A DNA stretch of 64,000 bases. Origin: Bdellovibrionales bacterium (lineage in GTDB: Bacteria; Bdellovibrionota; Bdellovibrionia; Bdellovibrionales; JAGQZY01). The notes below the pieces were generated by a model. It ran no database searches. It saw nothing but the letters and a program-made list of their open reading frames with translations, and was not told the origin of the DNA. Positions 7,720 to 29,568 of the stretch are shown piece by piece. Position 1 is the first letter of the stretch. The number at the start of each line of letters is the position of its first letter. Location of the stretch: the NCBI GenBank assembly GCA_964230645.1, contig CAXRHT010000002.1, positions 192,001-256,000 on the forward strand, read 5' to 3'. A program made the translations under genes and the position numbers.

Positions 7720-7735
7720 TGGCACAGCCCTTGCT
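7720..7735 (+). promoter_or_regulatory. sigma54 -24/-12 promoter
   Basis: TGGCAC-AGCCC-TTGCT, an exact consensus about 45 bp before the ATG at 7782. Confidence 0.75.
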
Positions 7736-7781
7736 CTTTAAAGGGGTGTTGAGAGAAATTTTTATCCCTAAGGGGGGAATT

Positions 7782-9209
7782 ATGAAAAACATAGCAGGAA
7801 AGCTTAAAAACATTGTTTTATTTATCAGTTTTGGAACCATGTCAGGTTGTGGAGCTCTTTTTGAAGGACTCAGCCAGGACGCCAATTTCGCCACTTATAA
7901 TGCGATTCACTCCGAAGCCGAAAATCAATTTATAGGTAACGACTCTGTTGACGGTGGACTTTTCGGTGACGAATCGGAAAGAAATATCGACGCTCCGAAA
8001 ATTGATGACCAATCAGAAACTAACAATGGTCAACCTCGAGTGACTGTGGATATTCCGCCCATTCGAGAGCCTGAGCTCTTACCCGAAACTCTTGAAATCA
8101 GCATGACCCCAAAGTCAATTTGCCAGGCCGGAGAGGTCGATGCCATTCGACTCTCTATGCATTGCTACCCGGATTTTCCATTAATTTTAACTAGAAAAGA
8201 TAGCACTGGTGAAACTATTATTGAAAACTTTGGTTCACAAGCTAGTAATGGTGAAGGTGGCCGTGAAGAGGCCATCCGCAGACTACGCAGTAACGACTGG
8301 ACAAGTGAAATCACTGGTTATGAATTTGATCTTTTTCTTTGCTTAGACAGTAATGGTGATAACAGCTGTATGGATGAGCAAGTGATGGATCTGAACCAAA
8401 TGAACGCGGATTTACTTTTATCTATCTTGAACTTTAATAAAATCAATAAAGGCAACAAAGTGGCTGAGAGAAGACAGTCTCTGAACCAAATTTGCTCTAA
8501 TGAAGTGATGAAAAAGGTAGAAAACGGTCTTGTTTTTTATCACCAGAGTTTTCTAGACTCCACTCAGGAAGATGTCATCAGTGCGGCTCGTTTGAATATT
8601 CATGACTTGACCGCTGACCGCATGGCTGAGTTCGTTAAAAACTTTAATGAAGAAACGCAAGTCATGGAATTCGAAACAGGGACCTCGGTTTCTTTTTCTC
8701 TAGTAGAAGCTGACAAAAACGCTTGTGATAAAATCGACAAAAGAATCCATGGTTGTTATGTCTCCGGAACAACGGTCCATATCTCTGAAGAAAACACTAT
8801 GCCGATTGAAGAGCTTCAGGTCGGATACCCAATCCTTCGAGCTAACGGAACGGTAACCAAGATCGCTAAGGTTGTGAAAGGTCCTGAGGAGAAAAAAGTC
8901 ATAAAACTAAAACTGGCATCCGATGAAACTGTAACCTTAACCGAAAATCACCCAGTTCACACTAAAACAGGAATCGTGCTCGCTAAAGACCTTGAAGAAG
9001 GACAAAGACTTCTCAACAAAAAAGGGGAGTGGCAAATTCTAACCAGTCTCACTAAAGAGAGTTACCATGGACTTGTTTACAATATTGAACTTGAGGGAAG
9101 CTCCAAAGTTGAGGACCATCTTCTCTACAGTGGTGGTATTGTTACTGGAGACCTTTACCTGCAAAATAAAGACAATTCAGAAAAAAAGAACTTAGCTTTG
9201 ACGAAATAA
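7782..9209 (+). CDS. Lipoprotein with C-terminal Hint (hedgehog/intein-like) domain
   Basis: Lipobox-like MSG|C; Hint block A G|CYVSGT (Cys codon at 8754), block B TENH, block F VYNI; no terminal His-Asn. Confidence 0.8.
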   Translation: MKNIAGKLKNIVLFISFGTMSGCGALFEGLSQDANFATYNAIHSEAENQFIGNDSVDGGLFGDESERNIDAPKIDDQSETNNGQPRVTVDIPPIREPELLPETLEISMTPKSICQAGEVDAIRLSMHCYPDFPLILTRKDSTGETIIENFGSQASNGEGGREEAIRRLRSNDWTSEITGYEFDLFLCLDSNGDNSCMDEQVMDLNQMNADLLLSILNFNKINKGNKVAERRQSLNQICSNEVMKKVENGLVFYHQSFLDSTQEDVISAARLNIHDLTADRMAEFVKNFNEETQVMEFETGTSVSFSLVEADKNACDKIDKRIHGCYVSGTTVHISEENTMPIEELQVGYPILRANGTVTKIAKVVKGPEEKKVIKLKLASDETVTLTENHPVHTKTGIVLAKDLEEGQRLLNKKGEWQILTSLTKESYHGLVYNIELEGSSKVEDHLLYSGGIVTGDLYLQNKDNSEKKNLALTK

Positions 9210-9236: not shown

Positions 9237-9266
9237 GAGCCCGTTTTTTAAATCGGGCTTTTTTTT
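9237..9266. terminator. Intrinsic terminator between convergent genes
   Basis: AGCCCG...CGGGCT stem followed by a T run. Confidence 0.7.
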
Positions 9267-11052
9267 ATTCGACTTTCTTTTTCACAAATTCAGGTTGTAG
9301 AGCCACAGAGCGGAACATATCATAAATGCTCCCTTGGCTCTCTAGCCTTCCGGCCTCAAAAAGCTCTAAGGGTGCACAGTCATCCTCTCCAAATTTTGAA
9401 TTCTCAGCTGTAGCAAATTTCCAAACAGTTTTAGCAAAACAGGCTTCTGCCTGAATGTTCGAGGCCACATTTCGAGCCAAATCCACCCCATCGCCAAAGC
9501 TTGCACTCTCACCATAGGGTAAGGTCGCCTGAGTCTGAGAATCGATGGGTTTGGTGGTTAAAACTTCTCCAGCCGAGCCACTGCCTTCTGGATGATAAAC
9601 TTGAGCTTGGCTACGAAAACGCCCGAAGGAATCAAAGTTCTCGAAAGCAAAGCCAATGGGATTAATCACTGTTTTGTGACATTGTACACATGTGGAATCG
9701 GGCTGTTCGGTGATGGCCTTAGTGCGCTCTCTTTCAGTAAAATGATCCTCTAAAACCACACCATCAGGGGTGTTGTTGTCTGCAGGAGAGGGGAGCTCTC
9801 CACACATGAAACGTTTATAGACATGCACACCCCTCATGATAGGGCGGGTACTTTCAAGACCCGTAAAAAGAAAGTGGGCTTGAGTTAAAAGACCGGCCCG
9901 CTCATCCCTAGGGGCCTCGATAAGGCTATTAAGGTCATAACTGCCATTCCATTTTTCCGTGCTGTAGATTTCTGCTAGATCATCGGTTCTTGGGAAAACA
10001 AGGTTACTTGTCATAAGCTCACTAAAGTTGGCATGCTGTTCCCAGATCAAGTAATCAAAATAGTCGTAAACTTCTTGAATAAGGTTGCTTCTTTGCTGAG
10101 AGTAAGAAAGACCGTGATTAAATCCTAACAGAATATCTTTCATAGCCTCTGTGGAGTCATTAATGGAAGGCGTTTCGTCGAGTTTAAGCCACTGATTGGC
10201 AAAGGCTTTGGTTAGTCTTTGCCGAACCTTAGGAAGTGATAAAAGACGATCGACTTGTTTTTTAACGCCCTGCTGAGTGGAAAGCTCACCTTTTTGTGCT
10301 GCCTGAAGAAGTTCGTCGTCGGGGAGACTGCGCAAATAAAAATAGGAAAGTTTAGAGGCGATTTCGTAATTTGAGAGCCGCACAAAGCCGTCTTGATCCG
10401 GACTGCTGCCATCCCCGAATTCGACCAATTGAGTAAAGGATGGCGAGCTTAGAATGAGTACTATTAAATTCCTGTAGCCTTCTGATTCCCGAGCTTGATA
10501 GGCATTGAGAAAAAAACTCACCTGCTCATCAGACAAGGGACGTCTAAAAGCCCTTTGACCAAAAGATCTAATAAAAGAAGTCGTGCAGGTATAATCACTG
10601 GCATCACTTGAACAACTTCCCGCTATTTTCGCTAACAATGCAGGGTTTGCAATTATAAAGTCAGCTAAACTTTCTGATAATTCCATATATTTTTCAATAT
10701 GAGTTTGAGTAAGAGAGCGATCATAAAGGTTCATTTCTTCGTGATGCTCTTCTGGCAGATTAGCAATTTCTTCACTCGCATCACTCAAGAGACTACCCAC
10801 CTCTGTGGAGGTTAGGTAGTTGCTAAACAAATCTTCAATGGAATAAACGAGCTGTTCATGGGTGATTCTTTTTGTCTGGGAGGAAAGGGGATTGCGTTTG
10901 TCACTGGGCTGACAACTTAAAACTTTATTAGCCGGACTTAAACTAGGAAGGAAATTATCGTTCACGGCAAAATTACCGTCAAAACATCCCGATAACATTA
11001 AGAGGATCAAAGTAAATCCAATAGAAAACACAATGCGACTCAACTGCTTCAT
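9265..11052 (-). CDS. DUF1592/DUF1595/DUF1588-type lipoprotein with a CxxCH
   Basis: LSG|C lipobox; FGQRAFRRPL, YEIASKLSYFYLRSLPDDELL, RAGLLTQ, TRPIMRG, CVQCH, INPIGFAFENFDSFGRFR. Confidence 0.85.
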   Translation of the reverse strand: MKQLSRIVFSIGFTLILLMLSGCFDGNFAVNDNFLPSLSPANKVLSCQPSDKRNPLSSQTKRITHEQLVYSIEDLFSNYLTSTEVGSLLSDASEEIANLPEEHHEEMNLYDRSLTQTHIEKYMELSESLADFIIANPALLAKIAGSCSSDASDYTCTTSFIRSFGQRAFRRPLSDEQVSFFLNAYQARESEGYRNLIVLILSSPSFTQLVEFGDGSSPDQDGFVRLSNYEIASKLSYFYLRSLPDDELLQAAQKGELSTQQGVKKQVDRLLSLPKVRQRLTKAFANQWLKLDETPSINDSTEAMKDILLGFNHGLSYSQQRSNLIQEVYDYFDYLIWEQHANFSELMTSNLVFPRTDDLAEIYSTEKWNGSYDLNSLIEAPRDERAGLLTQAHFLFTGLESTRPIMRGVHVYKRFMCGELPSPADNNTPDGVVLEDHFTERERTKAITEQPDSTCVQCHKTVINPIGFAFENFDSFGRFRSQAQVYHPEGSGSAGEVLTTKPIDSQTQATLPYGESASFGDGVDLARNVASNIQAEACFAKTVWKFATAENSKFGEDDCAPLELFEAGRLESQGSIYDMFRSVALQPEFVKKKVE

Positions 11053-11100
11053 AACCCAAAACTCATTTCGTGAAATTCTCTATTATTTTACAATGATACT

Positions 11101-11127
11101 TATTCGGCGGAAAGTGAGCGTCGCTTA
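11101..11127 (-). promoter_or_regulatory. sigma28 (FliA)-like promoter of the DUF1592 gene
   Basis: Minus strand reads TAAG-N15-GCCGAATA. Confidence 0.6.
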
Positions 11128-11221
11128 AGTGCCTCAACCTTTAACGATGAGTGTTTCAAAAAGAGAAGGCTTTAGTTTTTCCATAAAAAGTCGATTAAAA
11201 TAGGGTGATTACGGAACTCGG

Positions 11222-12787
11222 GTGGATATGAAGTACAACAAGCTGACAAGACGTTATTTTTTACAAGGATTGGGAGGCACAATGGTGGCCCTTCCTATTT
11301 TGCCATCACTGCTACCAAAGGCCCACGCACAAGTGCCTTCACCTAGTAATCTCATTATTATAGGTTCCGAGCACGGGGGAACAGGGTACCGAGATTGGTA
11401 TCCGCAAGCTTTGCGCGACCCTTTAAATCCTCTGGCAAGTCTTACGGAACAGCAACTCTTTACCGGTTCTGCTGCTGACGGGATGGATCACAAGATTAGA
11501 CACGCAAGGCTCAATACGCTCCTCACTGCTGAACCAGGACACCCTGGAGGGGATGTGGACTCTGGGCAAGCTCGCCTTTCTTATGTGCTTAACAGCCAGT
11601 TCAATCCCTACATTGATAAAATGAACCTTTACCAGGGCATTGATATTGGCCCTGAGTACCAAGGACACGGTGTGGGTGTTATCTCAGGCAATATCTCAGG
11701 TGTGTCCAATTCTGCAACTTACCGTAATTTACAAGCAACTCCTTCTTTGGATCAATTTCTCGCGGCTCATCCCAATTTTTACGGTGGAGCGAGTGATCAC
11801 TCCGTGGGTTCTATTATTATTGCCGGGCGTTCGCTTTCTTGGGACCCCAGTTTTCAAAGACTTCCCTCCAACGGCGGCAGTGCCAACGGATTGTTTAACA
11901 ATGTGTTTAGTAAGTACGATCAAGACCCTCAAGCCATAGCCAAAAGACAACAAAAGAAGTTTTTAGTCGATAAGGTGCTTGAGGACTACAACAATCTAAT
12001 GAGTGGTGCCTATGGACTTGGAAGGAAAATATCCAGTGAGGATCGTCACAAAGTCGAAGGGCAAATCGAAAGTCTCTTTAATATTCAAAAGAAAGTCACA
12101 GGCGCCTCCAATAATTGCAGTCTTGTGGGTGCTCCAGCCTCCAACGATTGGGACACTCGACTTGATTTAATTGTGGCTGCTATGAACTGTGGAGCGACCA
12201 GACTTGCCACTCTCTGGAGTCCGGTGATGTCGAATATCCCTAACTATCATCAGGATGTGGCTCACCAGGCAGGAAGTGATGCGGGGAGAAGACTGGATCA
12301 CTCCAATAATTTCCGCAGTCAAACCAATACGATTGTTGCTAAGCTTATTGAGAAAATGGATGCCGTCGACGTAGGAGGAGGTAAGACTCTTCTCGATCAA
12401 TCCCTTGTCTACTGGCAACATGAGAGTGGCGTGACCACTCACAGTGGTTATAGTGTGAACTTGGTCTCTTTTGGTTCCGCCAATGGCTTTTTAAACACAG
12501 GCTATTTCGTAGATTACAGAAACCTTTCGAATTACGGTTTAGCGAATAATAAAAAATTTGAAACAAAACCAGGTTTGTTGGTAAACCAGTGGTGGACCAC
12601 AATTTGCCAGGCCATGGGAATGAGACCTCAGGATTATGAAAGTGGTGGTGAGCCAGGCTATGGAACTTTTCACCGTAGTACTCGCTATCCTTATGGAAGT
12701 GCCGGCTGGCATGGGCATCGAGATCATCTCCCTTATCCAGAAAGAATCTACCAAGCCACAGGTAATACTCTTCCTATCATCACTTGA
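11222..12787 (+). CDS. DUF1552-family Tat-exported protein
   Basis: TRRYFLQGLGGTMVALPIL Tat signal; PSLDQFLA, LVDKV...ISSEDRHK, DLIVAAMNCGATR, GKTLLDQSLV. Start is GTG 11222 or ATG 11228. Confidence 0.8.
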   Translation: MDMKYNKLTRRYFLQGLGGTMVALPILPSLLPKAHAQVPSPSNLIIIGSEHGGTGYRDWYPQALRDPLNPLASLTEQQLFTGSAADGMDHKIRHARLNTLLTAEPGHPGGDVDSGQARLSYVLNSQFNPYIDKMNLYQGIDIGPEYQGHGVGVISGNISGVSNSATYRNLQATPSLDQFLAAHPNFYGGASDHSVGSIIIAGRSLSWDPSFQRLPSNGGSANGLFNNVFSKYDQDPQAIAKRQQKKFLVDKVLEDYNNLMSGAYGLGRKISSEDRHKVEGQIESLFNIQKKVTGASNNCSLVGAPASNDWDTRLDLIVAAMNCGATRLATLWSPVMSNIPNYHQDVAHQAGSDAGRRLDHSNNFRSQTNTIVAKLIEKMDAVDVGGGKTLLDQSLVYWQHESGVTTHSGYSVNLVSFGSANGFLNTGYFVDYRNLSNYGLANNKKFETKPGLLVNQWWTTICQAMGMRPQDYESGGEPGYGTFHRSTRYPYGSAGWHGHRDHLPYPERIYQATGNTLPIIT

Positions 12788-13409
12788 TATCGTACTGCCA
12801 ACCAATGGACCAACGGGCTGTGCCGATGTTGTGTTGGTAGGCCGCCGAGATCACGATGGCATTTTTAAGGTTGTAGCGCGTGATCATTGTTAAACCATAC
12901 CCATAGTAAAATAAATTCTCATCTTCGGCAGAAATATCTCTTTGTACGGGAGGCTGCCAGAAGGTCATACGGTACCCCACGGGAAAATAAAGTCCAAGCT
13001 CAGTTCTGAGACTTGAACGATAAAGAACCGTCGGGGAGAATTGAAAGTCGGTAAAATTTTGGTTACCGAAATCCTCGTTAATAGCCCCTTGTGCAAGGCC
13101 TTTTGCTTGACCGAAAGTCACTTTTGCGTTCAAGCCGTAAATCCAATGAATGTTTTTTCGGCTGGGCTTTACGTAATTGGCGTTAAGTTCCACTCCTTTA
13201 TAGGAGACATTCATTTTTTCAGTGGCACCACGTTGGTAAAGCCCCACTTCCTGCTGCCAAAAACCAACCCCCATTCCCACTTGAAAGGACTTTTTGGTGA
13301 GGTAGCGGTAGAGACGCTTTTTACTGGCATTCCCTTTGGCTTGGGCTTGCAAGCTCAATGCCCCCGTAAAGAAAATGAGCAAAATCATTTTTAAAAATTT
13401 GAATCTCAT
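12780..13409 (-). CDS. Small outer-membrane beta-barrel-like protein
   Basis: Signal peptide (AQA|K), alternating amphipathic strands, C-terminal WSIGWQY. Confidence 0.6.
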   Translation of the reverse strand: MRFKFLKMILLIFFTGALSLQAQAKGNASKKRLYRYLTKKSFQVGMGVGFWQQEVGLYQRGATEKMNVSYKGVELNANYVKPSRKNIHWIYGLNAKVTFGQAKGLAQGAINEDFGNQNFTDFQFSPTVLYRSSLRTELGLYFPVGYRMTFWQPPVQRDISAEDENLFYYGYGLTMITRYNLKNAIVISAAYQHNIGTARWSIGWQYDIK

Positions 13410-13419
13410 AAATCCATCC

Positions 13420-14574
13420 TTAGAGAGATAAATGCACTTGCATCAACAGGGCCCAGAAGTCATTGGGTGATTGACTTGAACTTAAGATTTGTCTGGTATT
13501 TTGTGCTTCCACACGAAATTCATAACGCGATCGAGGAAAAGCAAGCAGCCCAATACCCGTTCGAATGGTATCTGGCTGCTGACTTGAAAGTTCGGATTTA
13601 AAGGCCTCGCCAGTAAAGAAGAGGTGATATCCCCGCGCAAACTTTTGCATCACCTCAGAGAAGAGATAATAACCCAACTGCTCACTGATCGGGGTGGTGT
13701 CTTCAATTAAGCCCACTTCAAAAAGGATGGAGGAGCCATGCCCCAAACCATTGCGTGAGTGTATAGCAAGACGCTTCCAATCGACAAACTCATTGGAGGA
13801 AACAAGAGAAGAAAAACCCACCCGCCAAGCTTCGGCCACGTCAAATTCCATGAGTGTTGAAAAGCCTTGATGGCGAAGCTCCGCTTCCTGAAACATATTT
13901 CCAAGATAAGTGTGTAAGGTAAATTCGAAGCCTTCATCCACCCAGTGGGCCATCACCCCGTGGGTTTGATCGTTTTGCCCGTTGCCGGTCATGGCTCGGC
14001 TAAAAGCCGTGTGATCGACAATACGAATGCCGTAGGCTTTGTCCATCATCCCAACGAAAAGAAAAAGTTTCTCCATGGCCTGCCAGCGAAAATAGTGAGA
14101 GCGTGAAATCCAGTTTTCGATATCATCAGCTGTGGGCTGTCCTTGAAACCTTCTCGGTGTGGGAGCATATCCAAAAGACCCAACAAACATAAACTCATAA
14201 GATTGATCGAAGATTAAAGCGAGGTTTGCTTCAGCCTGCATTAAGACGTCGTCACTGGTTTCTGAGCTGCTCCCTGGATTGGATTGAAACCATAAGTATC
14301 TCGCTTTGAGACCCGGCTTCAGCCAGTAGGGGAGCTCCGTTTTTCCTAAAAAACCTGAGGACTCACCAAGCTCCTCGCTCGACTTATCTCCAGCCCACAA
14401 TCTCCCACCTATTTCAGCGGCCCACAAAGCTCGACCATAGTCGTTGATCGCTCCATTTCCTTGGCTGTTGTAGTGGCAGGTTAAACAGGAAGTGTATTTG
14501 TAACCTATAAATTCCGGATAAGCTTGGGATAAAGGCCCAGAAAGGATTAGAAACAGGAAGCAAAAGAGTCTCAC
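13420..14574 (-). CDS. Cytochrome-porin fusion (N-terminal CxxCH plus beta-barrel), Cyc2-like architecture
   Basis: Signal SQA| followed by YPEF-x7-CLTCH...INDYGR; the remainder looks like amphipathic beta-strands. Confidence 0.65.
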   Translation of the reverse strand: MRLFCFLFLILSGPLSQAYPEFIGYKYTSCLTCHYNSQGNGAINDYGRALWAAEIGGRLWAGDKSSEELGESSGFLGKTELPYWLKPGLKARYLWFQSNPGSSSETSDDVLMQAEANLALIFDQSYEFMFVGSFGYAPTPRRFQGQPTADDIENWISRSHYFRWQAMEKLFLFVGMMDKAYGIRIVDHTAFSRAMTGNGQNDQTHGVMAHWVDEGFEFTLHTYLGNMFQEAELRHQGFSTLMEFDVAEAWRVGFSSLVSSNEFVDWKRLAIHSRNGLGHGSSILFEVGLIEDTTPISEQLGYYLFSEVMQKFARGYHLFFTGEAFKSELSSQQPDTIRTGIGLLAFPRSRYEFRVEAQNTRQILSSSQSPNDFWALLMQVHLSL

Positions 14575-14671
14575 GTGCAGAATACCTCGAAGAAATATTT
14601 CATATTAGCTCCAGATTATACTAAAATAAAAACTGATGAAAAGTAACTATTTAATACAAAGTGGGAACCCA

Positions 14672-15211
14672 ATGAAAAACTCTTATAAAATCGCTCTTTC
14701 TTTTTTAATCCTTTTAGTTTCCTTTCAAATCAATGCCGCTGAACTCAAAGTGGATGTGGATTTAAGCCCGGCGGGAGACTTTGTTGCTAAAACCTCCAGT
14801 GTAAAAGGTAAAGCTTTTCTTAAAAAATCAGGTGGTAAGGAGTTACTCGCAGCTAAGGGCATTGTTATTGATTTACGAACTATTAAAACGGGCGTCAGTC
14901 TCAGAGACAAGCATTTGAAAAAATATTTAGAAGTGGATAAGTACCCCACTGCAACTTTACTTAAAGCCAAAGGTGGTAACGGTAAAGGTATTGCTTTAAT
15001 CAAAATCAGAGGAAAAAAAATAAAAGTAAAAGGGGATTATGAAATCAACGGCAGTGAGCTTACGGCTAACTTCCCTGTTAAACTCTCTCAACTCGGCATC
15101 ACAGGCGTTCGCTATATGGGTGTGGGCGTTAAGGACGAATTAAAAGTTCATGTGACAGTTCCAGTGGCTCCCATGGCTGAAATGAGAAAGCCGGCAAGCA
15201 AAGGAAAATAA
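14672..15211 (+). CDS. YceI-family lipid/polyisoprenoid-binding protein
   Basis: Signal peptide; IKTGVSLRDKHL...LEVDKYPTA; IRGK; FPVKLSQLGI. Confidence 0.8.
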   Translation: MKNSYKIALSFLILLVSFQINAAELKVDVDLSPAGDFVAKTSSVKGKAFLKKSGGKELLAAKGIVIDLRTIKTGVSLRDKHLKKYLEVDKYPTATLLKAKGGNGKGIALIKIRGKKIKVKGDYEINGSELTANFPVKLSQLGITGVRYMGVGVKDELKVHVTVPVAPMAEMRKPASKGK

Positions 15212-15217
15212 AATTCC

Positions 15218-15589
15218 ATGAAACGATTTTATATTTTTCTAATGACAGGCCCTTTTGTTTTTTTGTTAAGCGCCTGTTTACAAACTCAAAATTCAAGCTC
15301 CCAGGACGGAGAGCAGTTTGAAGAGCAACCGACAGGGAATCCTGCCTTTCTAGCCGCACGAACGGTGATTGCAAACAACTGTGCGGATTGCCACGGTTAT
15401 CATAACCAAAGTGAAGAACAATTGATTGCTACCAACTTTGTGATTCCTGGAGACCCTGAGGCCTCAATGATATTTTATCGCATAAAAAACAGTTCAGGGT
15501 CGCAAGGCCCTAAAAATATGCCTCAAACCGGGGAACTCTCCGAAGCCGAATTGCAAATTATTTTTGATTGGATTGACGGAATTGAGTGA
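15218..15589 (+). CDS. Cytochrome c lipoprotein (planctomycete-type cytochrome domain)
   Basis: LSA|C lipobox; NCADCH; VIPGDPEAS; distal NMP; IFDWI. Confidence 0.85.
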   Translation: MKRFYIFLMTGPFVFLLSACLQTQNSSSQDGEQFEEQPTGNPAFLAARTVIANNCADCHGYHNQSEEQLIATNFVIPGDPEASMIFYRIKNSSGSQGPKNMPQTGELSEAELQIIFDWIDGIE

Positions 15590-17885: not shown

Positions 17886-18263
17886 ATGAAACGTGTTCTA
17901 GTTTTTATTTTTCTGGTCAGCACTTCTTATGCCCATGCTTGCAAGAGTCCGTCAAAGGACTTTGCTCGTGACTTCTTTGACAATGAAAGCCATTGGATTG
18001 AAGTTCAAAAAGGCAACCTTGAAGAGATTGAGCCTAATAAGACCATCGAAGTGATGATTGATTTCAATCAATTCTCAAGAAGTAAAGCCTACACGGGGGG
18101 CGAGCTTTTAGGACACCTCGAAGAGGTCTGCCACACAAGTAACCCTAATGAACTCTTAGTTAAGGCAAAAAACTATAGCTTTAAAGTTCGGCAAAAAAGC
18201 TTTGGACTTGAAATCAAAGTTCTCTTTTTTACTTACTACCTAAGACCACTCTCTGTTCTTTAG
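17886..18263 (+). CDS. Small secreted hypothetical protein
   Basis: Signal peptide (AHA|C); 4 nt after the previous stop. Confidence 0.65.
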   Translation: MKRVLVFIFLVSTSYAHACKSPSKDFARDFFDNESHWIEVQKGNLEEIEPNKTIEVMIDFNQFSRSKAYTGGELLGHLEEVCHTSNPNELLVKAKNYSFKVRQKSFGLEIKVLFFTYYLRPLSVL

Positions 18264-19069
18264 TAATTGGTAATTTCACGCTCGCCCAGGGGTTGTCTTG
18301 GGCGATTGTTCTCCTGATATTTCGCTCGAAAACGCTCAATCTGCTCTTTACTAAGTTGTAAAGGGGTATTGAAAACAAACCACTGCACGCCCTCTAGGCA
18401 AGGTGGGTGAGTGAGTGAGCCTTCATAATGATAAAAGGTTTTACGAGGAGGAATCAATTGCTCGGGATTGAAGCGAAAGGCACTTGAGGATTGATAATTG
18501 GGGAGATTGTTGGTTTTTTGCCAAAGATCATCAAACCAAGCACTCCCTCTGCCTTCGACCACAAAAAGGCTTATAATGGCCTGTCTTAAGCCATTGGAAG
18601 AGCGGTGATAAAATTGCAATTCCATGGGCAGTTGGTTACCTGACAAGCTGTGCTCGCTGGGAGAGCGTACTTCAATTTTTTCAAGGAGAAAATCTCTACC
18701 TTGATAGCTGATTTGACTTTGGGGAGTTAAATCCACTCTCAAGGTGTAACCGGCATCAATGATCGTAGCATTCCCCGGTTTATAATCGATGGTCAATGGA
18801 TTGGGTTTTTGAGGGCGATGCCAAACGAGATTGACTGGTGACTGCTGCTCACCTGAGGAACACATATCGTATTGTTTATTAAGATTCGCCCAATTCTGAG
18901 GCCCTCTTTTTCCCTCACTGTAGTCCCAACTCCAAATATCTTTTTTACCTTGATTGGCTCCAGGTGGTGGTTGAGGAGCTTGTGGTTTTACCTCCTCTAC
19001 GGGAGGTCTTGATGAACAAGAAACAGTTAATAAGGCAAAACAGAAGAATCCTAGTAAAGCTGCACGCAT
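18260..19069 (-). CDS. Alpha-carbonic anhydrase-fold lipoprotein lacking the Zn-binding histidines
   Basis: WDYS..GPQNW, C..GEQQSPVN, PSEH, YEGSLTHPPCLEGVQW, NNRPRQPL. The HxH position reads EVR and ELH reads ELQ. ATG at 19069. Confidence 0.85.
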   Translation of the reverse strand: MRAALLGFFCFALLTVSCSSRPPVEEVKPQAPQPPPGANQGKKDIWSWDYSEGKRGPQNWANLNKQYDMCSSGEQQSPVNLVWHRPQKPNPLTIDYKPGNATIIDAGYTLRVDLTPQSQISYQGRDFLLEKIEVRSPSEHSLSGNQLPMELQFYHRSSNGLRQAIISLFVVEGRGSAWFDDLWQKTNNLPNYQSSSAFRFNPEQLIPPRKTFYHYEGSLTHPPCLEGVQWFVFNTPLQLSKEQIERFRAKYQENNRPRQPLGEREITNY

Positions 19070-19144
19070 GTTTGTGGCCCCTTTTGGTATAACTCTATTA
19101 TGACTGAAGAAATTAAAAAGCAAAAGTGAGGCTCAAGACTTAGG

Positions 19145-22105: not shown

Positions 22106-23509
22106 TTACTTTTGGGACATTGGGACCTTTAGTTTTTTTGAAAAGTAGGGGGAGGTCTTTTTTACTCCCTTGGAGATTACCTGGATATTGAGGTTTTCGT
22201 CTAAACTGGAATCAACCACGAGGTAGTTGTGCTCTTTTGTTGAAACGATCCTTCTTGGATTGTCGAGCCAACTTTCTTTTTCTGAGTCCGAACGAAAAAT
22301 GAAACTATGGATGGGACTTGAGGTAATCTCAAACGTTTCGTAGCCGAGGAGATCTTTTTCAATTTTAGCAATCTCTGAGTAGTGGATATCTCCTGACAAA
22401 AATACCACAGGTTGTTTAATGTTTTTCAAGTCTTTGAGGAGTTTTTGAAAATGTTTGGGATGATCAGCGATAAAGGTTTCATTGAGCTGCTTTTTTGAGC
22501 CGTCATCTCTTGTTACTACTGTGGCTTTGGTAAAAAACTGGCCACCATTGGCTAACCAAATAGGGCCCTTTGCTTCTTTGATCTCTCTTTCAAACCACTG
22601 ATGCTGAGCCTTTCCCCATTGTCCGAAAAGCGCTGTTTTGGATGGGTCCCTAAAATAACGGTTATCCATAAAGATAAATTTCTGACCAAAACCTTGGAAA
22701 CTAAACGAGACCCCATTTTTTGAAATATCAATGGATCCTTTTACAGGCTCGCCTCCAAAAAATGCGGTGTAGATTTTTTTAGCAGCCACTTTGCTTTTAA
22801 AGTTTTTATCCGAATTATTGGTTCCGAAGTCATGATCATCCCAAACTGAAAAAATAGGAATGAGTTCTCTGTTTTGAAAAAGAGGAATTTTGCGAAAAGC
22901 ATCGATATAACGTGTCCATATGTCGAACTCACTGGCCTCTTCTCGTTTTACAAAGTCGAAGTCATCGACATAGACCTGATCTCCGAGTAGCACCATGAAG
23001 TCGGCTTCTTGCTCCATCATTTGATCCCAAATGCGAGACCGTACATGTTCGTAGGCATGGGAATCAGACATACAGGAACCAAGGATAAAACGAGTTTTTT
23101 TATTTTTAAGTGGAAGAGTTTTAAAAGTGCGCCAGTCAATAGCGTAGCGACGAAATTTATTCACCATACTAATTTGGTAGGTTTTACCTGGATCTAAATC
23201 TTTAATAAAAACTCGGTCCACCTCCCAATGAATTCTAGGCCCTTTAGTGGTTTTAATGACCTTTAACTCACGCCCTTTTTTCCAGCTATCTACCTGACCC
23301 TTTTGGTATTCAGAAACATAGTAGGTGAGCCTGGAATAACGGGGTCGTAGAATATTAATGCTGGTCTCTTTATCAGTTGTCATGGTTTGAAAGACAGAGA
23401 CCCAGCCTGGGGCCTTGGTACGATCACCTTCTACACTGGTGAAACTACTGACTGTATTAGACTGACAATGGGTCAGGACTAGGAAGACAAGGGGAAGTAA
23501 CGATCGCAT
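22106..23509 (-). CDS. phoD: PhoD-family alkaline phosphatase/phosphodiesterase, probable lipoprotein
   Basis: GSC, LGDQVYVD, WDDHDFGTNN, DNRYFR, LSGDIH. Confidence 0.85.
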   Translation of the reverse strand: MRSLLPLVFLVLTHCQSNTVSSFTSVEGDRTKAPGWVSVFQTMTTDKETSINILRPRYSRLTYYVSEYQKGQVDSWKKGRELKVIKTTKGPRIHWEVDRVFIKDLDPGKTYQISMVNKFRRYAIDWRTFKTLPLKNKKTRFILGSCMSDSHAYEHVRSRIWDQMMEQEADFMVLLGDQVYVDDFDFVKREEASEFDIWTRYIDAFRKIPLFQNRELIPIFSVWDDHDFGTNNSDKNFKSKVAAKKIYTAFFGGEPVKGSIDISKNGVSFSFQGFGQKFIFMDNRYFRDPSKTALFGQWGKAQHQWFEREIKEAKGPIWLANGGQFFTKATVVTRDDGSKKQLNETFIADHPKHFQKLLKDLKNIKQPVVFLSGDIHYSEIAKIEKDLLGYETFEITSSPIHSFIFRSDSEKESWLDNPRRIVSTKEHNYLVVDSSLDENLNIQVISKGVKKTSPYFSKKLKVPMSQK

Positions 23510-24578: not shown

Positions 24579-26240
24579 ATGATTTGGGTGCGTTCTGTTT
24601 TTTTAAACAGTCAAAAATCTAAAATATTGTTGTCGCTAATGGCAATCTTCATGACCTTTCCATCACTAGCTCAAGTTTCTGTAAACCCATCGACAACAAC
24701 AGGCAGTATGTCTTTTAATCTCAACTCAGATCAAATCCTTTCAGTGCGCCTGCAAGTTACTGATGCGGATTACACCAATGAGGGACAGCTATTTGTAAAC
24801 GGGCAGGGACCTATTGAACTCTTTGATGGTGTCGATTCTGCCAACAATGACAAAACGATCTATTTTAATGTCAACATCGGCAACAATCAGGCCGATTGGT
24901 TTAATTATAATGGGGCGAGAAACGATTTAGAGTTTCGCTTTTTTGATGACCCTCAAAACGCGGGTGTTAACGATGGTTTTACTATTATATCAGTAAAGCC
25001 CATCACCGAGCTTCCTAAGAAAGTCTATGACGCTGTTCCTGTAAGAACCGACGGTGAAATTTCACAAGCTCGCTTCAAAGCACTTGATATTTATAAAAGA
25101 CTTGTCGGTGTGCGTGTTCCCATCGACCACCCAATATTAGTCGAAATGGAAGAATTAGTTGCAAGGGGAGACCTTACGGGTGCTGCTCAGATCGCCACGA
25201 ACGAGCCCGGGTTTTATAACCTTGTGGTCAGAGACTTCGCTGCGCGAATGTCGACAAGAGATCAAAGTATTAATGAAGAATTTAATGATTTTATAGCGAC
25301 CTTTATTGGTGTGACCAGAGATGATATTGATGCAAGACAGCTATTGACCGGGAGCTTTTATTATAAAGGTTCTATTGATGCCCCAGTAGACGCAGATATT
25401 ATGGACGACATTCTCGGCTCCAATGATCACTATCAGCAACTCGCTGGGCAAAACTACGATTTTGCTACCGTTCTTGAAAGAGAGAACACCCAATATATAA
25501 GAACAAATAACGATGACAATTATATCGAGCATCCCGATGCTGCGGGAGTGATTACCTCTCGAGCCTTCATGGGCGCTCATGCCATTGATGGAACGAACCG
25601 TCGTCTGGTTGAATACACTGTGAAGCAATTTGCCTGTTTTGATCTTGAGGAATGGGCTGATGCCACAGCTCCAGACACTCGCGTGGGACCCGATATTGAT
25701 CGTTTCCCTGGGGGAGAGGGATCGAAGTATTTGACGACCTGTAAAGCCTGTCACTCAGTGATGGATGGTTTCCGTGGAGCTTTTGCAAAATATGATTTTG
25801 ATAACAACTATGTACGCTACCGCACCGATGGACGAGATAGAAACACCAATGGAAATAACCTTGGTCAGAGAATCGAAATTTCAGGAATCGATAATAAGAT
25901 GAACCAAAACCATTCGACTTTTAGCAATGGTTACATCACTCGTGACAATAGTTGGATTAACAACGCTCGAAGTCCTGCGAACGTTCAGAAGTTTGGATGG
26001 CGGGGAGTGGTTTCTGCTGGTAACGGTGTAAAACAGTTTGGTCGTGCCATTGCCAATTCAAAAGCCTTTTCACGATGTATGACCAAAAAGGTTTACCGTG
26101 AACTCTGTCGTAGGCCTGTTGCTTCCTTTGAAACTTCAATGGTGGAGTCGATGGCTCAATCTTTTGAAAGCAGCGGTTATAAATTGAAAAAACTCTTTGA
26201 AGATATAGCAGTCAGACCGGAATGTTTGGGGGTCAGATAA
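24579..26240 (+). CDS. Secreted protein with CxxCH and DUF1585-like C-terminus
   Basis: IYKRLVG, AAGVITSRAF, GTNRR, CKACHSVMDGFRGAF, FSRCMTKKVY...YKLKKLF. Confidence 0.75.
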   Translation: MIWVRSVFLNSQKSKILLSLMAIFMTFPSLAQVSVNPSTTTGSMSFNLNSDQILSVRLQVTDADYTNEGQLFVNGQGPIELFDGVDSANNDKTIYFNVNIGNNQADWFNYNGARNDLEFRFFDDPQNAGVNDGFTIISVKPITELPKKVYDAVPVRTDGEISQARFKALDIYKRLVGVRVPIDHPILVEMEELVARGDLTGAAQIATNEPGFYNLVVRDFAARMSTRDQSINEEFNDFIATFIGVTRDDIDARQLLTGSFYYKGSIDAPVDADIMDDILGSNDHYQQLAGQNYDFATVLERENTQYIRTNNDDNYIEHPDAAGVITSRAFMGAHAIDGTNRRLVEYTVKQFACFDLEEWADATAPDTRVGPDIDRFPGGEGSKYLTTCKACHSVMDGFRGAFAKYDFDNNYVRYRTDGRDRNTNGNNLGQRIEISGIDNKMNQNHSTFSNGYITRDNSWINNARSPANVQKFGWRGVVSAGNGVKQFGRAIANSKAFSRCMTKKVYRELCRRPVASFETSMVESMAQSFESSGYKLKKLFEDIAVRPECLGVR

Positions 26241-26241
26241 T

Positions 26242-26880
26242 ATGAACTTAAAAAAGTCTTTAATCAAACTTACAAGTTTTTGCTTGGCCTTTGGGATGAT
26301 CTCAGTGACATACCAGAACTGTGGGTCTCCGGATGCCAACAACGGTGGTGCGGTGAGTTCATCAGCAGACAATGGTGATATCATCCCTATCCCAAATACA
26401 AAAACAGCTTCCATCCAGAGAGCCTCACGAGTTCTTGACAATTTGGTGTCCTGTCTTGGAACCGGAGAGCCCAGTAACGACGCTAGGGATGCTTGGCAGA
26501 ACAACCGAGGCACTATTTCAGAGGAAGGTTTAGCGAACTCGATGACTCAGCCTATGGCCAAAGCCTTGGTGTCTATTTCAGCGGAGGTTTGTGATGACCT
26601 TATGAATCAAGAAAGATCACTGGATGTGGATCAGAGACGTATCTTTCTTGAAATTGACTTTGATAACGGTGGAGTGGCTCGCTCGGATTTAGGATTAGCA
26701 GCCAAACGTCTGGCCAGATCTTGCTGGGGACGCAATGCTACTGATGATGAGCTGGGAATGATTATTTCGAATATCGACTCAAATTTTTCATCCGGAGAGG
26801 ACAATCGCGACACAACTCGCTTGAAAGCTGTTTACTTATGTACAGCAATGGCGGCTTCCTTTTCCACTTTTGAAATGTAA
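26242..26880 (+). CDS. Lipoprotein, DUF1595-like helical domain
   Basis: YQN|C lipoprotein-type signal; LARSCWGRNATDDE resembles FGQRAFRRPLSDEQ in the 9265-11052 protein. Confidence 0.65.
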   Translation: MNLKKSLIKLTSFCLAFGMISVTYQNCGSPDANNGGAVSSSADNGDIIPIPNTKTASIQRASRVLDNLVSCLGTGEPSNDARDAWQNNRGTISEEGLANSMTQPMAKALVSISAEVCDDLMNQERSLDVDQRRIFLEIDFDNGGVARSDLGLAAKRLARSCWGRNATDDELGMIISNIDSNFSSGEDNRDTTRLKAVYLCTAMAASFSTFEM

Positions 26881-26890
26881 CGGGGTAACA

Positions 26891-28381
26891 ATGAGTGATA
26901 AAAAGATAAAAAAAGAAATGATGGCCGAACAACAAGAGGCCAAACGCAAAGAGCTAGAGAAGAATTACAAGGACTACTGTCTCTCCCACAATAAGCGGCC
27001 TATGACCCGCAGGGATTTACTCAGTGCTGGTGTCTATAGTTTTGCAGCCTCAATGACATTACCCACTTTGGCTGGAATGATGGCGCCTCGAACCGCTTTC
27101 GCTCAGGCAGCCAACTGTCCTTCGGCCAGCAGTGGCTCGAGCATGATTCCCTTTGTCACTTTAAACCTTTCAGGAGGAGCGGGCTTAGCGGCCAATTATG
27201 TTCCCACCGATGCTGGTGGAAACCTTCTTCCTACTTATAACAAACTCGGAATGGGGAATAGCTCCTTAAACATCGAAACTGAGTTTGGCAATGTGCCTTT
27301 TGCTGGAGATGACGGAACGGGAGTTTTGATTTCAAAACTTCTCACAGAGTTAAGAAACAATTCGACTCCCGCAACACTTGCCAATACGGCTTTTGTAGCG
27401 ATTCCGGTTCGCTCGCGCGATGACTCTAGCATGAATCCTTTTGACGCCTCAGGTATGGTCGCTAAAGCTGGTCTTGTGGGATCGGATCTTCCAAATCTTG
27501 GAAGGAGAGCCAGTGACACAGGAACTCGCCAAATGTATGCGAAGATAAAACCGCCCACACCTCTTATCGTCGGAAACTATGATGATATTGCCAGTGCCTT
27601 GGCTCTAGGAGCCACGGGCCCTCTATCTAATCTAAACGATGAAAAAAAGGTTTCACTAGTGAAATTGGTTAATAACCTGAGTGATTCTCAGGTTCAAAAA
27701 GTGAATGCGGATGCGGGTGGACGAATGCTCGCCAACCTTGTGCGCTGTTCAACTGGTAAAAACGTGGAACTTTCACAAAAACCCCAACCCACAGTGGATG
27801 TAAGACAAGACGCCTCTCTGGCTTCCGTTTGGGGAGTCGACGGTGGCACAAACTCTCGTGACGAGAGTGTGGTTTTTGGTTCTATGGTGAATGCCGGTCT
27901 TTTAGGCTATGCAGGAACTGTAAACTTAGAAAGGGGTGGTTACGACTACCATAATGGAACTCGTACCACAGGAGATGACCGAGATGGTCGTGCCGGTGCC
28001 GTTATTGGAAGAATTTTAGAAAGTGCCGCTGCTTTAAATAAAAAAGTTTTTATCTACGTGACCTCTGATGGAGCTGTCGTGTCACCAGAAAGTGACGACC
28101 GAGCTGCACCTTGGAGAAGTGACCGAGGATCCGCAGGAATGGCTTATATTCTTGCCTATGATCCATCCGGACGCCCTCAAACCAGCGGACACCAAATTGG
28201 TCAATTTACCGCAGCACAAGCGGCTGATGACAAGTTTGTAACAGGAAACAATCCAGAGCTGGCCGCGTCGGCCGCTGTGGCTAATTATTTAAAATTTAAC
28301 AACCGAATGGATTTAATAGAACCGGTGTTAGGAAGTACGTTTACTTCAGCTCAGTTAGCTCAAATTTTAAAATTTGGCTAA
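26891..28381 (+). CDS. Tat-exported DUF1501/DUF1552-like protein
   Basis: MTRRDLL Tat motif, AFA|Q cleavage; LNLSGGA, RSRDD..NP, GGYDYH, VTSDG. Confidence 0.7.
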   Translation: MSDKKIKKEMMAEQQEAKRKELEKNYKDYCLSHNKRPMTRRDLLSAGVYSFAASMTLPTLAGMMAPRTAFAQAANCPSASSGSSMIPFVTLNLSGGAGLAANYVPTDAGGNLLPTYNKLGMGNSSLNIETEFGNVPFAGDDGTGVLISKLLTELRNNSTPATLANTAFVAIPVRSRDDSSMNPFDASGMVAKAGLVGSDLPNLGRRASDTGTRQMYAKIKPPTPLIVGNYDDIASALALGATGPLSNLNDEKKVSLVKLVNNLSDSQVQKVNADAGGRMLANLVRCSTGKNVELSQKPQPTVDVRQDASLASVWGVDGGTNSRDESVVFGSMVNAGLLGYAGTVNLERGGYDYHNGTRTTGDDRDGRAGAVIGRILESAAALNKKVFIYVTSDGAVVSPESDDRAAPWRSDRGSAGMAYILAYDPSGRPQTSGHQIGQFTAAQAADDKFVTGNNPELAASAAVANYLKFNNRMDLIEPVLGSTFTSAQLAQILKFG

Positions 28382-28413
28382 TCGAAAGCAGAAGCTAGAG
28401 GGGCAAAAATAAA

Positions 28414-29568
28414 ATGAGTACGTCGATGGTTAAATATTTTATTGCGGCTGTGGTTTTGGTCACACTTTTCCAAAACTGTTCGGCCACCCATGAAAGTAGC
28501 TCCACACTGAGCTCGTTTCAAGCTTGTAATTTAATCTTGAAAGATGAGTTCGTGAAAGGCTATCAAAAGTTTCTTCAAACAAATTGTAACAGTTGCCACG
28601 TCTCCAATGGCTCTGGGAACGGAGCCTTTGCTGACTCGAGTGTCGATACAGCTTTTGACGCTTTTATTTTTCGTGGCTACGAACTTGTGGGTGCAAGAGC
28701 GCTGGACCCCAACCATCAACCTCCTTTTACCGGAAGCCAACACCAAAGTGCACTCAGTGAGCTTGAGGGCACCTGGAGTAGCGCGCAAGCTCAAGTGGAT
28801 GTTTGTGTGGCAAATTCAGGTGGCGGTATAGGCGGTGGTATTGATGATGGACTCGTGCCGGAAGACCCCACACCCACTCAAGGTAATATTACCACTTTTA
28901 TAAAAGCCTTAGAGGCTGATAAAGACGAGAAAACTTTAAGCTGGAATCTTGAAAACGAAATTGCCGATCCAAGTGACCTCTCCTTCCCAGGAGCGACTCT
29001 AGAAATTGATGTGCGTGCGATCACCTCATCAACGGGAGACAAGAGTTATGTGATTTCAAACCCAAGACTCACAGCCGGTAGTGAAGCTCTTCATATCACT
29101 TTTATTGAATTTTCGATCAATAATAAGGTTGTTACTAATGCCACCAGCTACCACACAGTGAACCGAAGAGTTCCCGCAGGGGAGACTCGTGATCTTGGAG
29201 TTGGGGGAACGATTTTTAGCTATAATATACGTGCAACCGATGTGCTTGCACTTAAAATTGGCCGGCTTGAGACCATCGAGTTTGATCCTCCGACCTTCGA
29301 TGAGCTTATCGCTCCTACCGGTGTGCTTGGAGCCAATTGTTTGTCCTGTCATGATGGGAGTAACGGCAATTCCACTCCTCAAGGAGGTTTTGATATCTCC
29401 TCTCGTGACGCTATTATCAGTCAGTTAATGGTGTCACCTTATAGTCCTAATAATTCTGAAATCTATAAAAGGATGAACGATTTACAAAGGCCCATGCCTC
29501 AAGGAGGACTATTGCCTGTAGACCAAGTGGATCAAGTTCTCTGGTGGATTCAAGACGGAGCAAGGTAA
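28414..29568 (+). CDS. Diheme cytochrome c lipoprotein
   Basis: FQN|C signal; CNSCH and CLSCH; C-terminal PYSPNNSEIYKRM...PMP...WWIQDGA. Confidence 0.8.
   Translation: MSTSMVKYFIAAVVLVTLFQNCSATHESSSTLSSFQACNLILKDEFVKGYQKFLQTNCNSCHVSNGSGNGAFADSSVDTAFDAFIFRGYELVGARALDPNHQPPFTGSQHQSALSELEGTWSSAQAQVDVCVANSGGGIGGGIDDGLVPEDPTPTQGNITTFIKALEADKDEKTLSWNLENEIADPSDLSFPGATLEIDVRAITSSTGDKSYVISNPRLTAGSEALHITFIEFSINNKVVTNATSYHTVNRRVPAGETRDLGVGGTIFSYNIRATDVLALKIGRLETIEFDPPTFDELIAPTGVLGANCLSCHDGSNGNSTPQGGFDISSRDAIISQLMVSPYSPNNSEIYKRMNDLQRPMPQGGLLPVDQVDQVLWWIQDGAR

Follow-up and report, generated by a model that had tools for sequence, protein, structure and literature searches.

A predicted single-haem outer-membrane porin of Cyc2-type design and its partner genes in Bdellovibrionota

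According to Keffer et al., Cyc2 proteins combine a signal peptide, a single CxxCH haem-binding site, the motif AxPxFAR[QK][TY] that these authors call unique to Cyc2, and a PxL motif at a distance of four residues behind CxxCH with a barrel of 16 strands that resembles OprO/P, for which OprP served as structural template. The Cyc2 barrels share little sequence among themselves, and the function of distant cytochrome-porin homologues was regarded as uncertain by the same authors. A related design was encountered in a stretch of 64,000 nucleotides from a Bdellovibrionales bacterium (GenBank assembly GCA_964230645.1, contig CAXRHT010000002.1, positions 192,001 to 256,000), here referred to as the window, which contains a gene for a cytochrome-porin, named the haem porin in the following, adjacent to genes encoding a small barrel protein, a YceI-family protein and a cytochrome c lipoprotein. 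The sequence comparisons place the haem porin in a family that is separate from Cyc2, with a Cyc2-type design and without membership by the published motif test.

The open-access literature, in which the alignment and tree of Keffer et al., possibly containing remote members, were not included, yielded no account of this family or locus; related publications provided background on Cyc2, Mtr and PSCyt systems only. The combination of Bdellovibrio and YceI yielded no match, and neither the accessions nor the tags Bd2525 to Bd2527 gave a relevant match in the main texts. The accessible parts of PMC13692758, PMC13741234, PMC5615132 and PMC5406399 do not describe the family or the locus, those of PMC10654088 and PMC12442345 do not mention Bdellovibrio, and those of a report on magnetotactic Bdellovibrionota include Mtr homologues and no mention of a Cyc2-like protein (PMC13200544).

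The haem porin and its relation to Cyc2

The locus comprises the following features, with positions counted from the first nucleotide of the window:

13420..14574, minus strand: predicted monohaem cytochrome-porin (haem porin), 384 amino acids (aa); orthologue of Bd2525 (Q6MK85) of Bdellovibrio bacteriovorus HD100, 38% identity
12780..13409, minus strand: predicted small outer-membrane barrel with OmpA/OprG-like fold, 209 aa, 8 predicted strands
14575..14671, no strand: divergent intergenic gap with one sigma-70-like site in each direction
14636..15211, plus strand: YceI-family secreted protein (PF04264) of a short subfamily; likely start at 14672
15218..15589, plus strand: monohaem cytochrome c lipoprotein, 123 aa, with lipobox Cys20, CxxCH at residues 55-59 and Met101-Pro102

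The open reading frames of the window confirmed the coordinates of these four genes as given in an earlier note that had been made from the DNA sequence alone. The haem porin consists of a signal peptide of approximately 18 residues (judged by eye), the CxxCH motif at residues 30-34 and a predicted 16-strand barrel at residues 85-384. After the signal peptide the protein begins with YPEFIGYKYTS-CLTCH, followed by AINDYGR at a distance of seven residues and not of six, as had been noted earlier; the seven residues between F22 and C30, the same spacing as in Cyc2-motif proteins, had been counted correctly. Since only 0.0007 CxxCH motifs are expected from the composition of the haem porin and the motif is invariant in its homologues, it is not a chance occurrence. 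It is kept in 120/120 close homologues, in 119 of the 120 full-length representatives at 50% identity, the single exception being N-terminally truncated, and in all 49 paralogue-type haem porins; a 658-aa match (P0268) that looks like a single read-through fusion was set aside.

A beta-barrel structure had been set beforehand as a test, and the AlphaFold2 model of the haem porin, built with a 120-row alignment, revealed 16 strands with a mean predicted local distance difference test score (pLDDT) of 87 and a predicted template modelling score of 0.84. The matches of this model in Foldseek were 16-strand porins. A wide structural search ranked OprP first (Z 23.8, root mean square deviation 3.5 Å, 292 aligned residues), with OmpT, Omp32 and chitoporin close behind and 16-strand porins within about 1.5 Z of the top. 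Sequence searches of Pfam, NCBIfam and the PDB gave no match, and the ESM Atlas provided unnamed clusters only, from Bdellovibrionota and Myxococcota, the nearest named family being Porin_O_P on 12% of members. On the basis of the model, the 384-aa protein is predicted to be an outer-membrane porin with a single haem-binding site.

The designation of this protein as Cyc2-like, which had been proposed in the earlier note, is appropriate for the design, which joins a haem c site to a 16-strand porin resembling OprP, and inappropriate for family membership, as the defining motif is absent and the profile similarity comprises 33 columns of the haem region. The observation that the AR of the Cyc2 motif is not conserved was borne out: PxFAR[QK][TY] is present in 0/81 locus proteins and 0/169 database proteins, A-x-P-x-F alone being shared. 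Likewise, the PxL motif four residues after CxxCH was not found in the haem porin family, in which [PAS]-[LI] occupies positions eight and nine after the His. With 384 aa, the haem porin is longer than the minimum of 365 aa that is applied to Cyc2. For profile comparisons, 59 complete metagenomic proteins with the motif, selected from 80 loci, served as a proxy of Cyc2 that is biased to PSFARQTG; Pfam and NCBIfam do not recognise these proteins either. The hidden Markov model of the proxy did not find the haem porin family (best E-value 0.22 on 120 members). A profile-profile comparison with the proxy (170-row alignment) aligned the 33 haem-region columns with a probability of 78.8% (E 1.7e-5), and the barrel reached 0.8%. 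The haem-region profile scored the proxy set slightly above the other CxxCH proteins of the genome (median 7.3 vs 4.05 bits). A common ancestry of the haem domain in the haem porin and Cyc2 is possible, because a wide haem porin profile weakly catches 16 of 120 Cyc2-motif loci at E <0.001.

Partner genes and conservation of the locus

The small barrel gene lies 10 bp downstream of the haem porin gene, as described earlier. Its predicted structure contains 8 strands (pLDDT 92) and resembles OmpA, Ail and OprG; searches of Pfam and NCBIfam assigned no family. The YceI protein matches PF04264 with 47.4 bits (E 3.4e-12; curated cut-off 23.7), contains the conserved subfamily motifs TG-x2-LRD-x-H and YMG, shares 49% identity with the B. 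bacteriovorus protein at the same position of the locus and shows a weak sequence match to the solved YceI structure 2x32 (E 0.15). The cytochrome gene follows after 6 bp. Its lipobox Cys20, CxxCH motif and Met101-Pro102 are invariant, and Met101, found in 52/52 cytochromes, points to a predicted His/Met ligation of the haem; the PF13442 match (E 9e-6) lies slightly below the cut-off. A link to Leptospira by way of NF047812 was dismissed as weak (34 bits vs a cut-off of 100; 4/52 cytochromes at E up to 0.001), and a haem link for LIC11211 was not found in the accessible passages on it.

The divergent gap of less than 100 bp between the haem porin and YceI genes measures 61 bp from the first ATG or 97 bp from the ATG at 14672. 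Its sigma-70-like sites are not in excess of random expectation for the region (4 observed vs 5.1 predicted), and a sigma-28-like core was not found within 14575-14671. A general sigma-28 control found no support, as this core is located upstream of 8/52 YceI and 11/71 cytochrome genes vs 89/739 other genes and does not occur at the locus of the window.

Homologues of the haem porin amount to 340 in the 90% database and to 1190 clusters at 50% identity (E up to 0.001). Relatives are present in 185 of 301 sampled genomes (61%) of the phylum Bdellovibrionota; 78 of the 80 named loci belong to this phylum, including cultured Bdellovibrio, and two are assigned to 'Proteobacteria bacterium'. The ESM Atlas additionally lists a cluster dominated by Myxococcota. 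The family can be divided into two subfamilies, characterized by YPxFIGYxY (own subfamily of the window) and [FY]PxxxRHGY (paralogue-type). Gene neighbourhoods were compared in 80 own-subfamily loci, from which the neighbour profiles were built, and in two independent sets of 20 loci each, one hand-picked from distant families of the own subfamily and one of the paralogue type.

The small barrel follows the haem porin directly in 78/80 YPxFIGYxY loci, both exceptions ending at a contig edge, and in 111 of 113 close homologues from the phylum search (E <1e-70; 99 by the first profile, 12 on inspection and two without it). In the reverse direction, 99 of 102 small-barrel matches sit directly behind such a haem porin. 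A small barrel of this type was found in 0/20 paralogue-type loci. The cytochrome occurs in 71/80 loci, in 19/20 distant own-subfamily loci and in 17/20 paralogue-type loci; the respective numbers for YceI are 53/80, 16/20 and 20/20. All four genes co-occur in 49/80 and 15/20 distant own-subfamily loci, which answers a further test that had been set. The objections that the earlier note had allowed for, as far as testable, did not materialize: a barrel is predicted, CxxCH is conserved and the four genes are found together elsewhere. With 12 arrangement classes among 100 loci and units that are divergent, convergent or co-directional, the linkage of cytochrome and YceI to the haem porin survives rearrangement. 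Apart from the small barrel, the frequent partners are all redox proteins or of the quinone-carrier type.

Individual loci deviate from this scheme. One locus contains tandem haem porins with the cytochrome in between (L239, genome G130), one retains the small barrel, cytochrome and YceI, although its 10 kb of sequence lack a match to the haem porin (L244, G269), and one encodes a 560-aa protein with 21 haems that is convergent with a paralogue-type haem porin operon (L235, G247). Within the window genome (G000), two paralogues with 21-24% identity each repeat the trio of cytochrome, YceI and haem porin. A fourth pair of cytochrome lipoprotein and YceI at G000:C1:740229-741332 (minus strand) has no adjoining haem porin. 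A 497-aa secreted protein at G000:C3:655117-656610 (plus strand), which carries two CxxCH motifs at the N-terminus and ends in a barrel-like region, represents a dihaem variant of the family that matches the wide haem porin profile (E 1.3e-15) and has no adjoining YceI.

Neither the two paralogous loci nor the operon of DUF1585-like and Tat proteins had been recognised in the earlier note. Paralogous and associated operons are located as follows:

G000:C3:762633-765116 (L082): paralogous cytochrome-YceI-haem porin operon
G000:C1:53833-57111 (L083): paralogous cytochrome-YceI-haem porin operon; its lipoprotein is trihaem, and a different small barrel-like protein follows
24579..29568, plus strand: associated four-gene operon, counterpart of HD100 Bd2532-Bd2529, about 9 kb from the haem porin module
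9265..11052, minus strand: DUF1592/DUF1588/DUF1595 haem lipoprotein of a related module type
11222..12787, plus strand: DUF1552 protein that pairs with this lipoprotein and abuts the haem porin module

The operon at 24579-29568 encodes a secreted CxxCH protein with a DUF1585 C-terminus, a lipoprotein, a protein with a twin-arginine (Tat) leader and a dihaem cytochrome lipoprotein. It belongs to the commonest type of associated module, and its counterpart in B. bacteriovorus directly adjoins the haem porin module. Such a module of DUF1585-like and twin-arginine proteins is present within about 7-8 kb in 26/80 and 11/20 own-subfamily loci vs 5.6% of random 15-kb windows of the window genome, which is itself rich in these modules; near paralogue-type haem porins it was found in 0/20 loci. 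The three module types are scattered over the haem porin tree with 14 presence changes, at least 10 of which are forced by well-supported branches; this is a quick tree of 63 loci of at least 14 kb, in which kin are not independent. The pair at 9265-12787 is a looser associate of the haem porin, because the DUF1592-DUF1552 type adjoins it in only 4-5 of 81 loci. DUF1588 was rejected as an obligatory partner, as it occurs in 73/301 genomes vs 185/301 for the haem porin, with 63 shared (hand count).

The window genome contains 62 CxxCH-bearing open reading frames and 11 DUF1588 matches, many of which are lipoproteins paired with DUF1552-like genes, indicating an expanded family. Upstream of the DUF1592 gene, the frame at 7731-9209 (plus strand) encodes a lipoprotein-like protein whose C-terminus matches a Hint domain (PT-HINT, right at the cut-off). 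The region between the two haem operons includes an alpha-carbonic anhydrase gene (18260-19123, minus strand) and a lipoprotein gene (22106-23509, minus strand) whose product carries a WDDHD motif, a sequence known from PhoD-type phosphatases.

Expression in B. bacteriovorus HD100 and the proposed electron flow

The HD100 orthologue Bd2525 (CAE80324) has the haem porin as its best match in the window genome; the tag Bd2524 belongs to a PilZ gene. Bd2525 is followed by Bd2526, the small barrel according to position and length, Bd2527 (YceI), Bd2528, a cytochrome with an additional N-terminal part compared with that of the window, and the DUF1585-like operon Bd2529-Bd2532. A proteome study recorded the products of all eight genes Bd2525-Bd2532 throughout its 11 time points, on the basis of 5-35 unique peptides, and of 12-15 each for Bd2525-Bd2528 (PMC12546842). 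The orthologues are thus real proteins that are present together in attack-phase cells. The level of Bd2525 was steady (log2 5.06-5.44), and those of Bd2527-Bd2532 dipped at 3-4 h and then recovered (PMC12546842). On the transcript level, Bd2526 showed 196 and 67 reads per kilobase per million mapped reads (RPKM) in attack and growth phase, respectively, and Bd2529-Bd2532 ranged from 721 to 2677 and from 0.7 to 10; FliA sites are listed for both operons, Bd2527-28 and Bd2529-32 (PMC3627812). The searched HD100 tags were not found in the transposon-sequencing supplements for strain 109J (PMC6561027).

Both subfamilies conserve the residues H188, H381 and M112 in addition to CxxCH, with H188 in 113/119 and 49/49 (paralogue-type) proteins and H381 in 109/119 and 46/48. 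H188 is located in a long loop after strand 5. By strand alternation, H381 would face the lumen on the last strand, near the periplasmic C-terminus. Met112 is equally conserved and alternates with membrane-facing residues, a position that makes it an unlikely haem ligand. H188 or H381 would provide the second ligand, resulting in a bis-His haem that is presumably bound covalently to the CxxCH motif of the barrel.

Our preferred reading, held tentatively and with somewhat less than even confidence, is that the haem porin is an inward electron conduit with a soluble donor. The haem would plug the periplasmic end of the porin, a small soluble reductant, for which Fe(II) is one candidate, would enter the pore and reduce the barrel haem, and the electrons would pass to the neighbouring cytochrome c lipoprotein. 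The potential of a bis-His barrel haem would lie below that of a His/Met cytochrome, which would favour inward flow, although the measured potentials of Cyc2 proteins spread widely (-130, 208 and 560 mV). The YceI protein would probably carry a quinone as periplasmic shuttle, since members of this family crystallise with isoprenoids or ubiquinone-8 (PMC9113575), and the small barrel would probably act as fixed membrane partner of the haem porin. The electrons could end at haem-copper oxidases, two of which are encoded along with a cytochrome c assembly protein in the 99.6% complete window genome. RuBisCO was not found in this genome, and the relatives include cultured Bdellovibrio, which supports the predatory or heterotrophic host suspected earlier; the conduit would provide supplementary energy or redox poise to swimming, non-growing attack-phase cells rather than iron-based autotrophy.

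Several observations weigh against an inward conduit. Model confidence is low in the haem region (pLDDT <50 at residues 14-29), so the ligand assignments draw on conservation and strand alternation only. YceI is missing from 17/47 long loci. The mRNA of Bd2525 is a growth-phase transcript (RPKM 2.8 in attack vs 61.6 in growth phase; 11 and 73 reads), whereas the partners are attack-phase genes with 6825/51 for Bd2527 and 3966/12 for Bd2528 (PMC3627812), and microarray data on host-independent growth agree, with Bd2525 up 3.4-fold and Bd2527-28 down 8- to 10-fold (PMC2797640). Co-transcription of the haem porin and its partners is thus not seen, an argument against a simple complex of fixed stoichiometry. 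Moreover, the family is charge-neutral (9.6% acidic and 10.2% basic residues) vs the net-acidic Cyc2-motif proteins (7.7% and 5.5%), a weak point against a cation as donor. Finally, the donor must enter the pore, because one haem cannot span the membrane, as Keffer et al. argued for Cyc2.

The same set of genes could serve envelope redox protection with an outward flow, in which electrons from YceI-bound quinol and from the cytochromes would maintain the barrel haem in its reduced state for quenching lipid peroxyl radicals or other oxidants at the outer membrane. By analogy, this would be a c-type-haem counterpart of BcnA (YceI) and LcoA (cytochrome b561), mutants of which exhibit increased lipid peroxidation (PMC9113575). 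Among the partners, YceI is the one that recurs most regularly in the two subfamilies, with 20/20 paralogue-type loci, and its transcript level in attack phase is very high; no cytochrome b561 is encoded near the YceI gene of the window, the single PF01292 match being more than 1 Mb away (G000:C2:1323659). A His/Met cytochrome is nevertheless more easily an acceptor than a donor towards a bis-His haem, provided that the ligands are as proposed, membrane lipids can be reached without a porin lumen, and the long loci lacking YceI count here as well, so that we rate protection as rather unlikely. Alternatively, the haem porin could be a haem-gated substrate entry port or a redox sensor of a larger periplasmic oxidoreductase formed by the DUF1585-like haem protein, the Tat protein, the lipoprotein and the cytochromes; the haem would then control or prime the passage of an organic substrate rather than conduct current. 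The enrichment of the module over the genomic background, its three types scattered over the tree and the common features of Bd2527-Bd2532, namely expression in attack phase, promoters of the FliA type and a transient drop of the proteins at 3-4 h, are in line with such a role. The module is absent near the 20 paralogue-type haem porins, DUF1588 proper is considerably less widespread than the haem porin with kin that are not independent, and the haem porin is not co-transcribed with the module; an entry port is regarded as quite unlikely in its own right and could also extend the inward conduit, with which it is compatible.

A reading as very divergent true Cyc2, i.e. an Fe(II) oxidase yielding energy from dissolved iron, is favoured by the common architecture, the identical F-to-C spacing and the resemblance of LxxYGR to LTxFGR. 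The weak scores of the wide profile on the 16 Cyc2-motif loci fit this assumption, as does the low sequence similarity of the Cyc2 barrels among themselves. The motif is lacking throughout the family and the barrel profiles do not align, however, and RuBisCO was not detected. The hosts moreover include obligate predators, and B. bacteriovorus is grown without an added iron donor as energy source. In addition, the partners differ from the Cyc2 partners in the accessible parts of PMC10654088 and PMC13741234. A true Cyc2 therefore appears very unlikely.

Cytochrome-porins serve as markers of iron oxidation, and 61% of the sampled Bdellovibrionota genomes contain a separate family with this design. 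All parts of the locus are expressed in HD100, an obligate predator amenable to genetics, making roles of single-haem porins beyond Cyc2 testable; the locus also bears on how attack-phase predators keep respiring without feeding and ties the widespread modules of the DUF1585/DUF1592/DUF1552/DUF1501 type to a testable locus. In its furthest form, which we consider unlikely, the inward conduit would be part of the predators' own outer-membrane electron-harvesting machine, composed of a two-barrel haem porin, a quinone shuttle, mono- and dihaem cytochromes and a DUF1585-like/Tat enzyme. In attack-phase cells that starve, the flagellar sigma factor would activate the periplasmic half, and the cells would draw electrons from their surroundings while hunting. 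If true, this machine would be the first functional handle on planctomycete-type PSCyt/DUF1501 modules.

Comparison with known systems

The operons neighbouring the haem porin are members or remote relatives of the planctomycete-type PSCyt/PSD modules (DUF1585, DUF1588, DUF1592, DUF1552, DUF1501; PMC5615132); the accessible part of that article does not connect these modules with a haem porin of the outer membrane. OprP/OprO and general 16-strand porins (PDB 2o4v, 5oyk, 1e54) have the same barrel fold (Z 22-24, TM score about 0.55-0.6), from which the haem porin differs by a low sequence identity of 8-10% and by the N-terminal haem domain. The BcnA-LcoA system likewise contains a secreted YceI protein that is genetically tied to a haem protein, and quinone carriage has been proposed for it (PMC9113575); in the window, by contrast, the partners are predicted outer-membrane or periplasmic c-type haem proteins, without an inner-membrane b561.

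With Cyc2, represented by Cyc2 of A. ferrooxidans, Cyc2PV-1 of Mariprofundus, Cyt572 of Leptospirillum and Cyc2TAG1 of Ghiorsea (bioRxiv 10.1101/228056 = PMC8406198; PMC13692758), the haem porin has a common design: a signal peptide, a single N-terminal CxxCH, 16 strands with OprP as best match, the F-to-C spacing, a similar L-x-x-[YF]GR downstream of CxxCH and a length of >365 aa. YceI, small barrel and cytochrome gave no match in 120 short Cyc2-motif loci. The haem porin differs from Cyc2 by YPxFIGYxY in place of AxPxFAR[QK][TY], by a GxGNG insertion before P/A-L and by a conserved lumen His at position -4, a site occupied by Trp in 48/59 Cyc2-motif proteins. Further differences are the fixed 8-strand partner barrel, the YceI protein and the lipoprotein cytochrome, and the predatory, non-autotrophic hosts.

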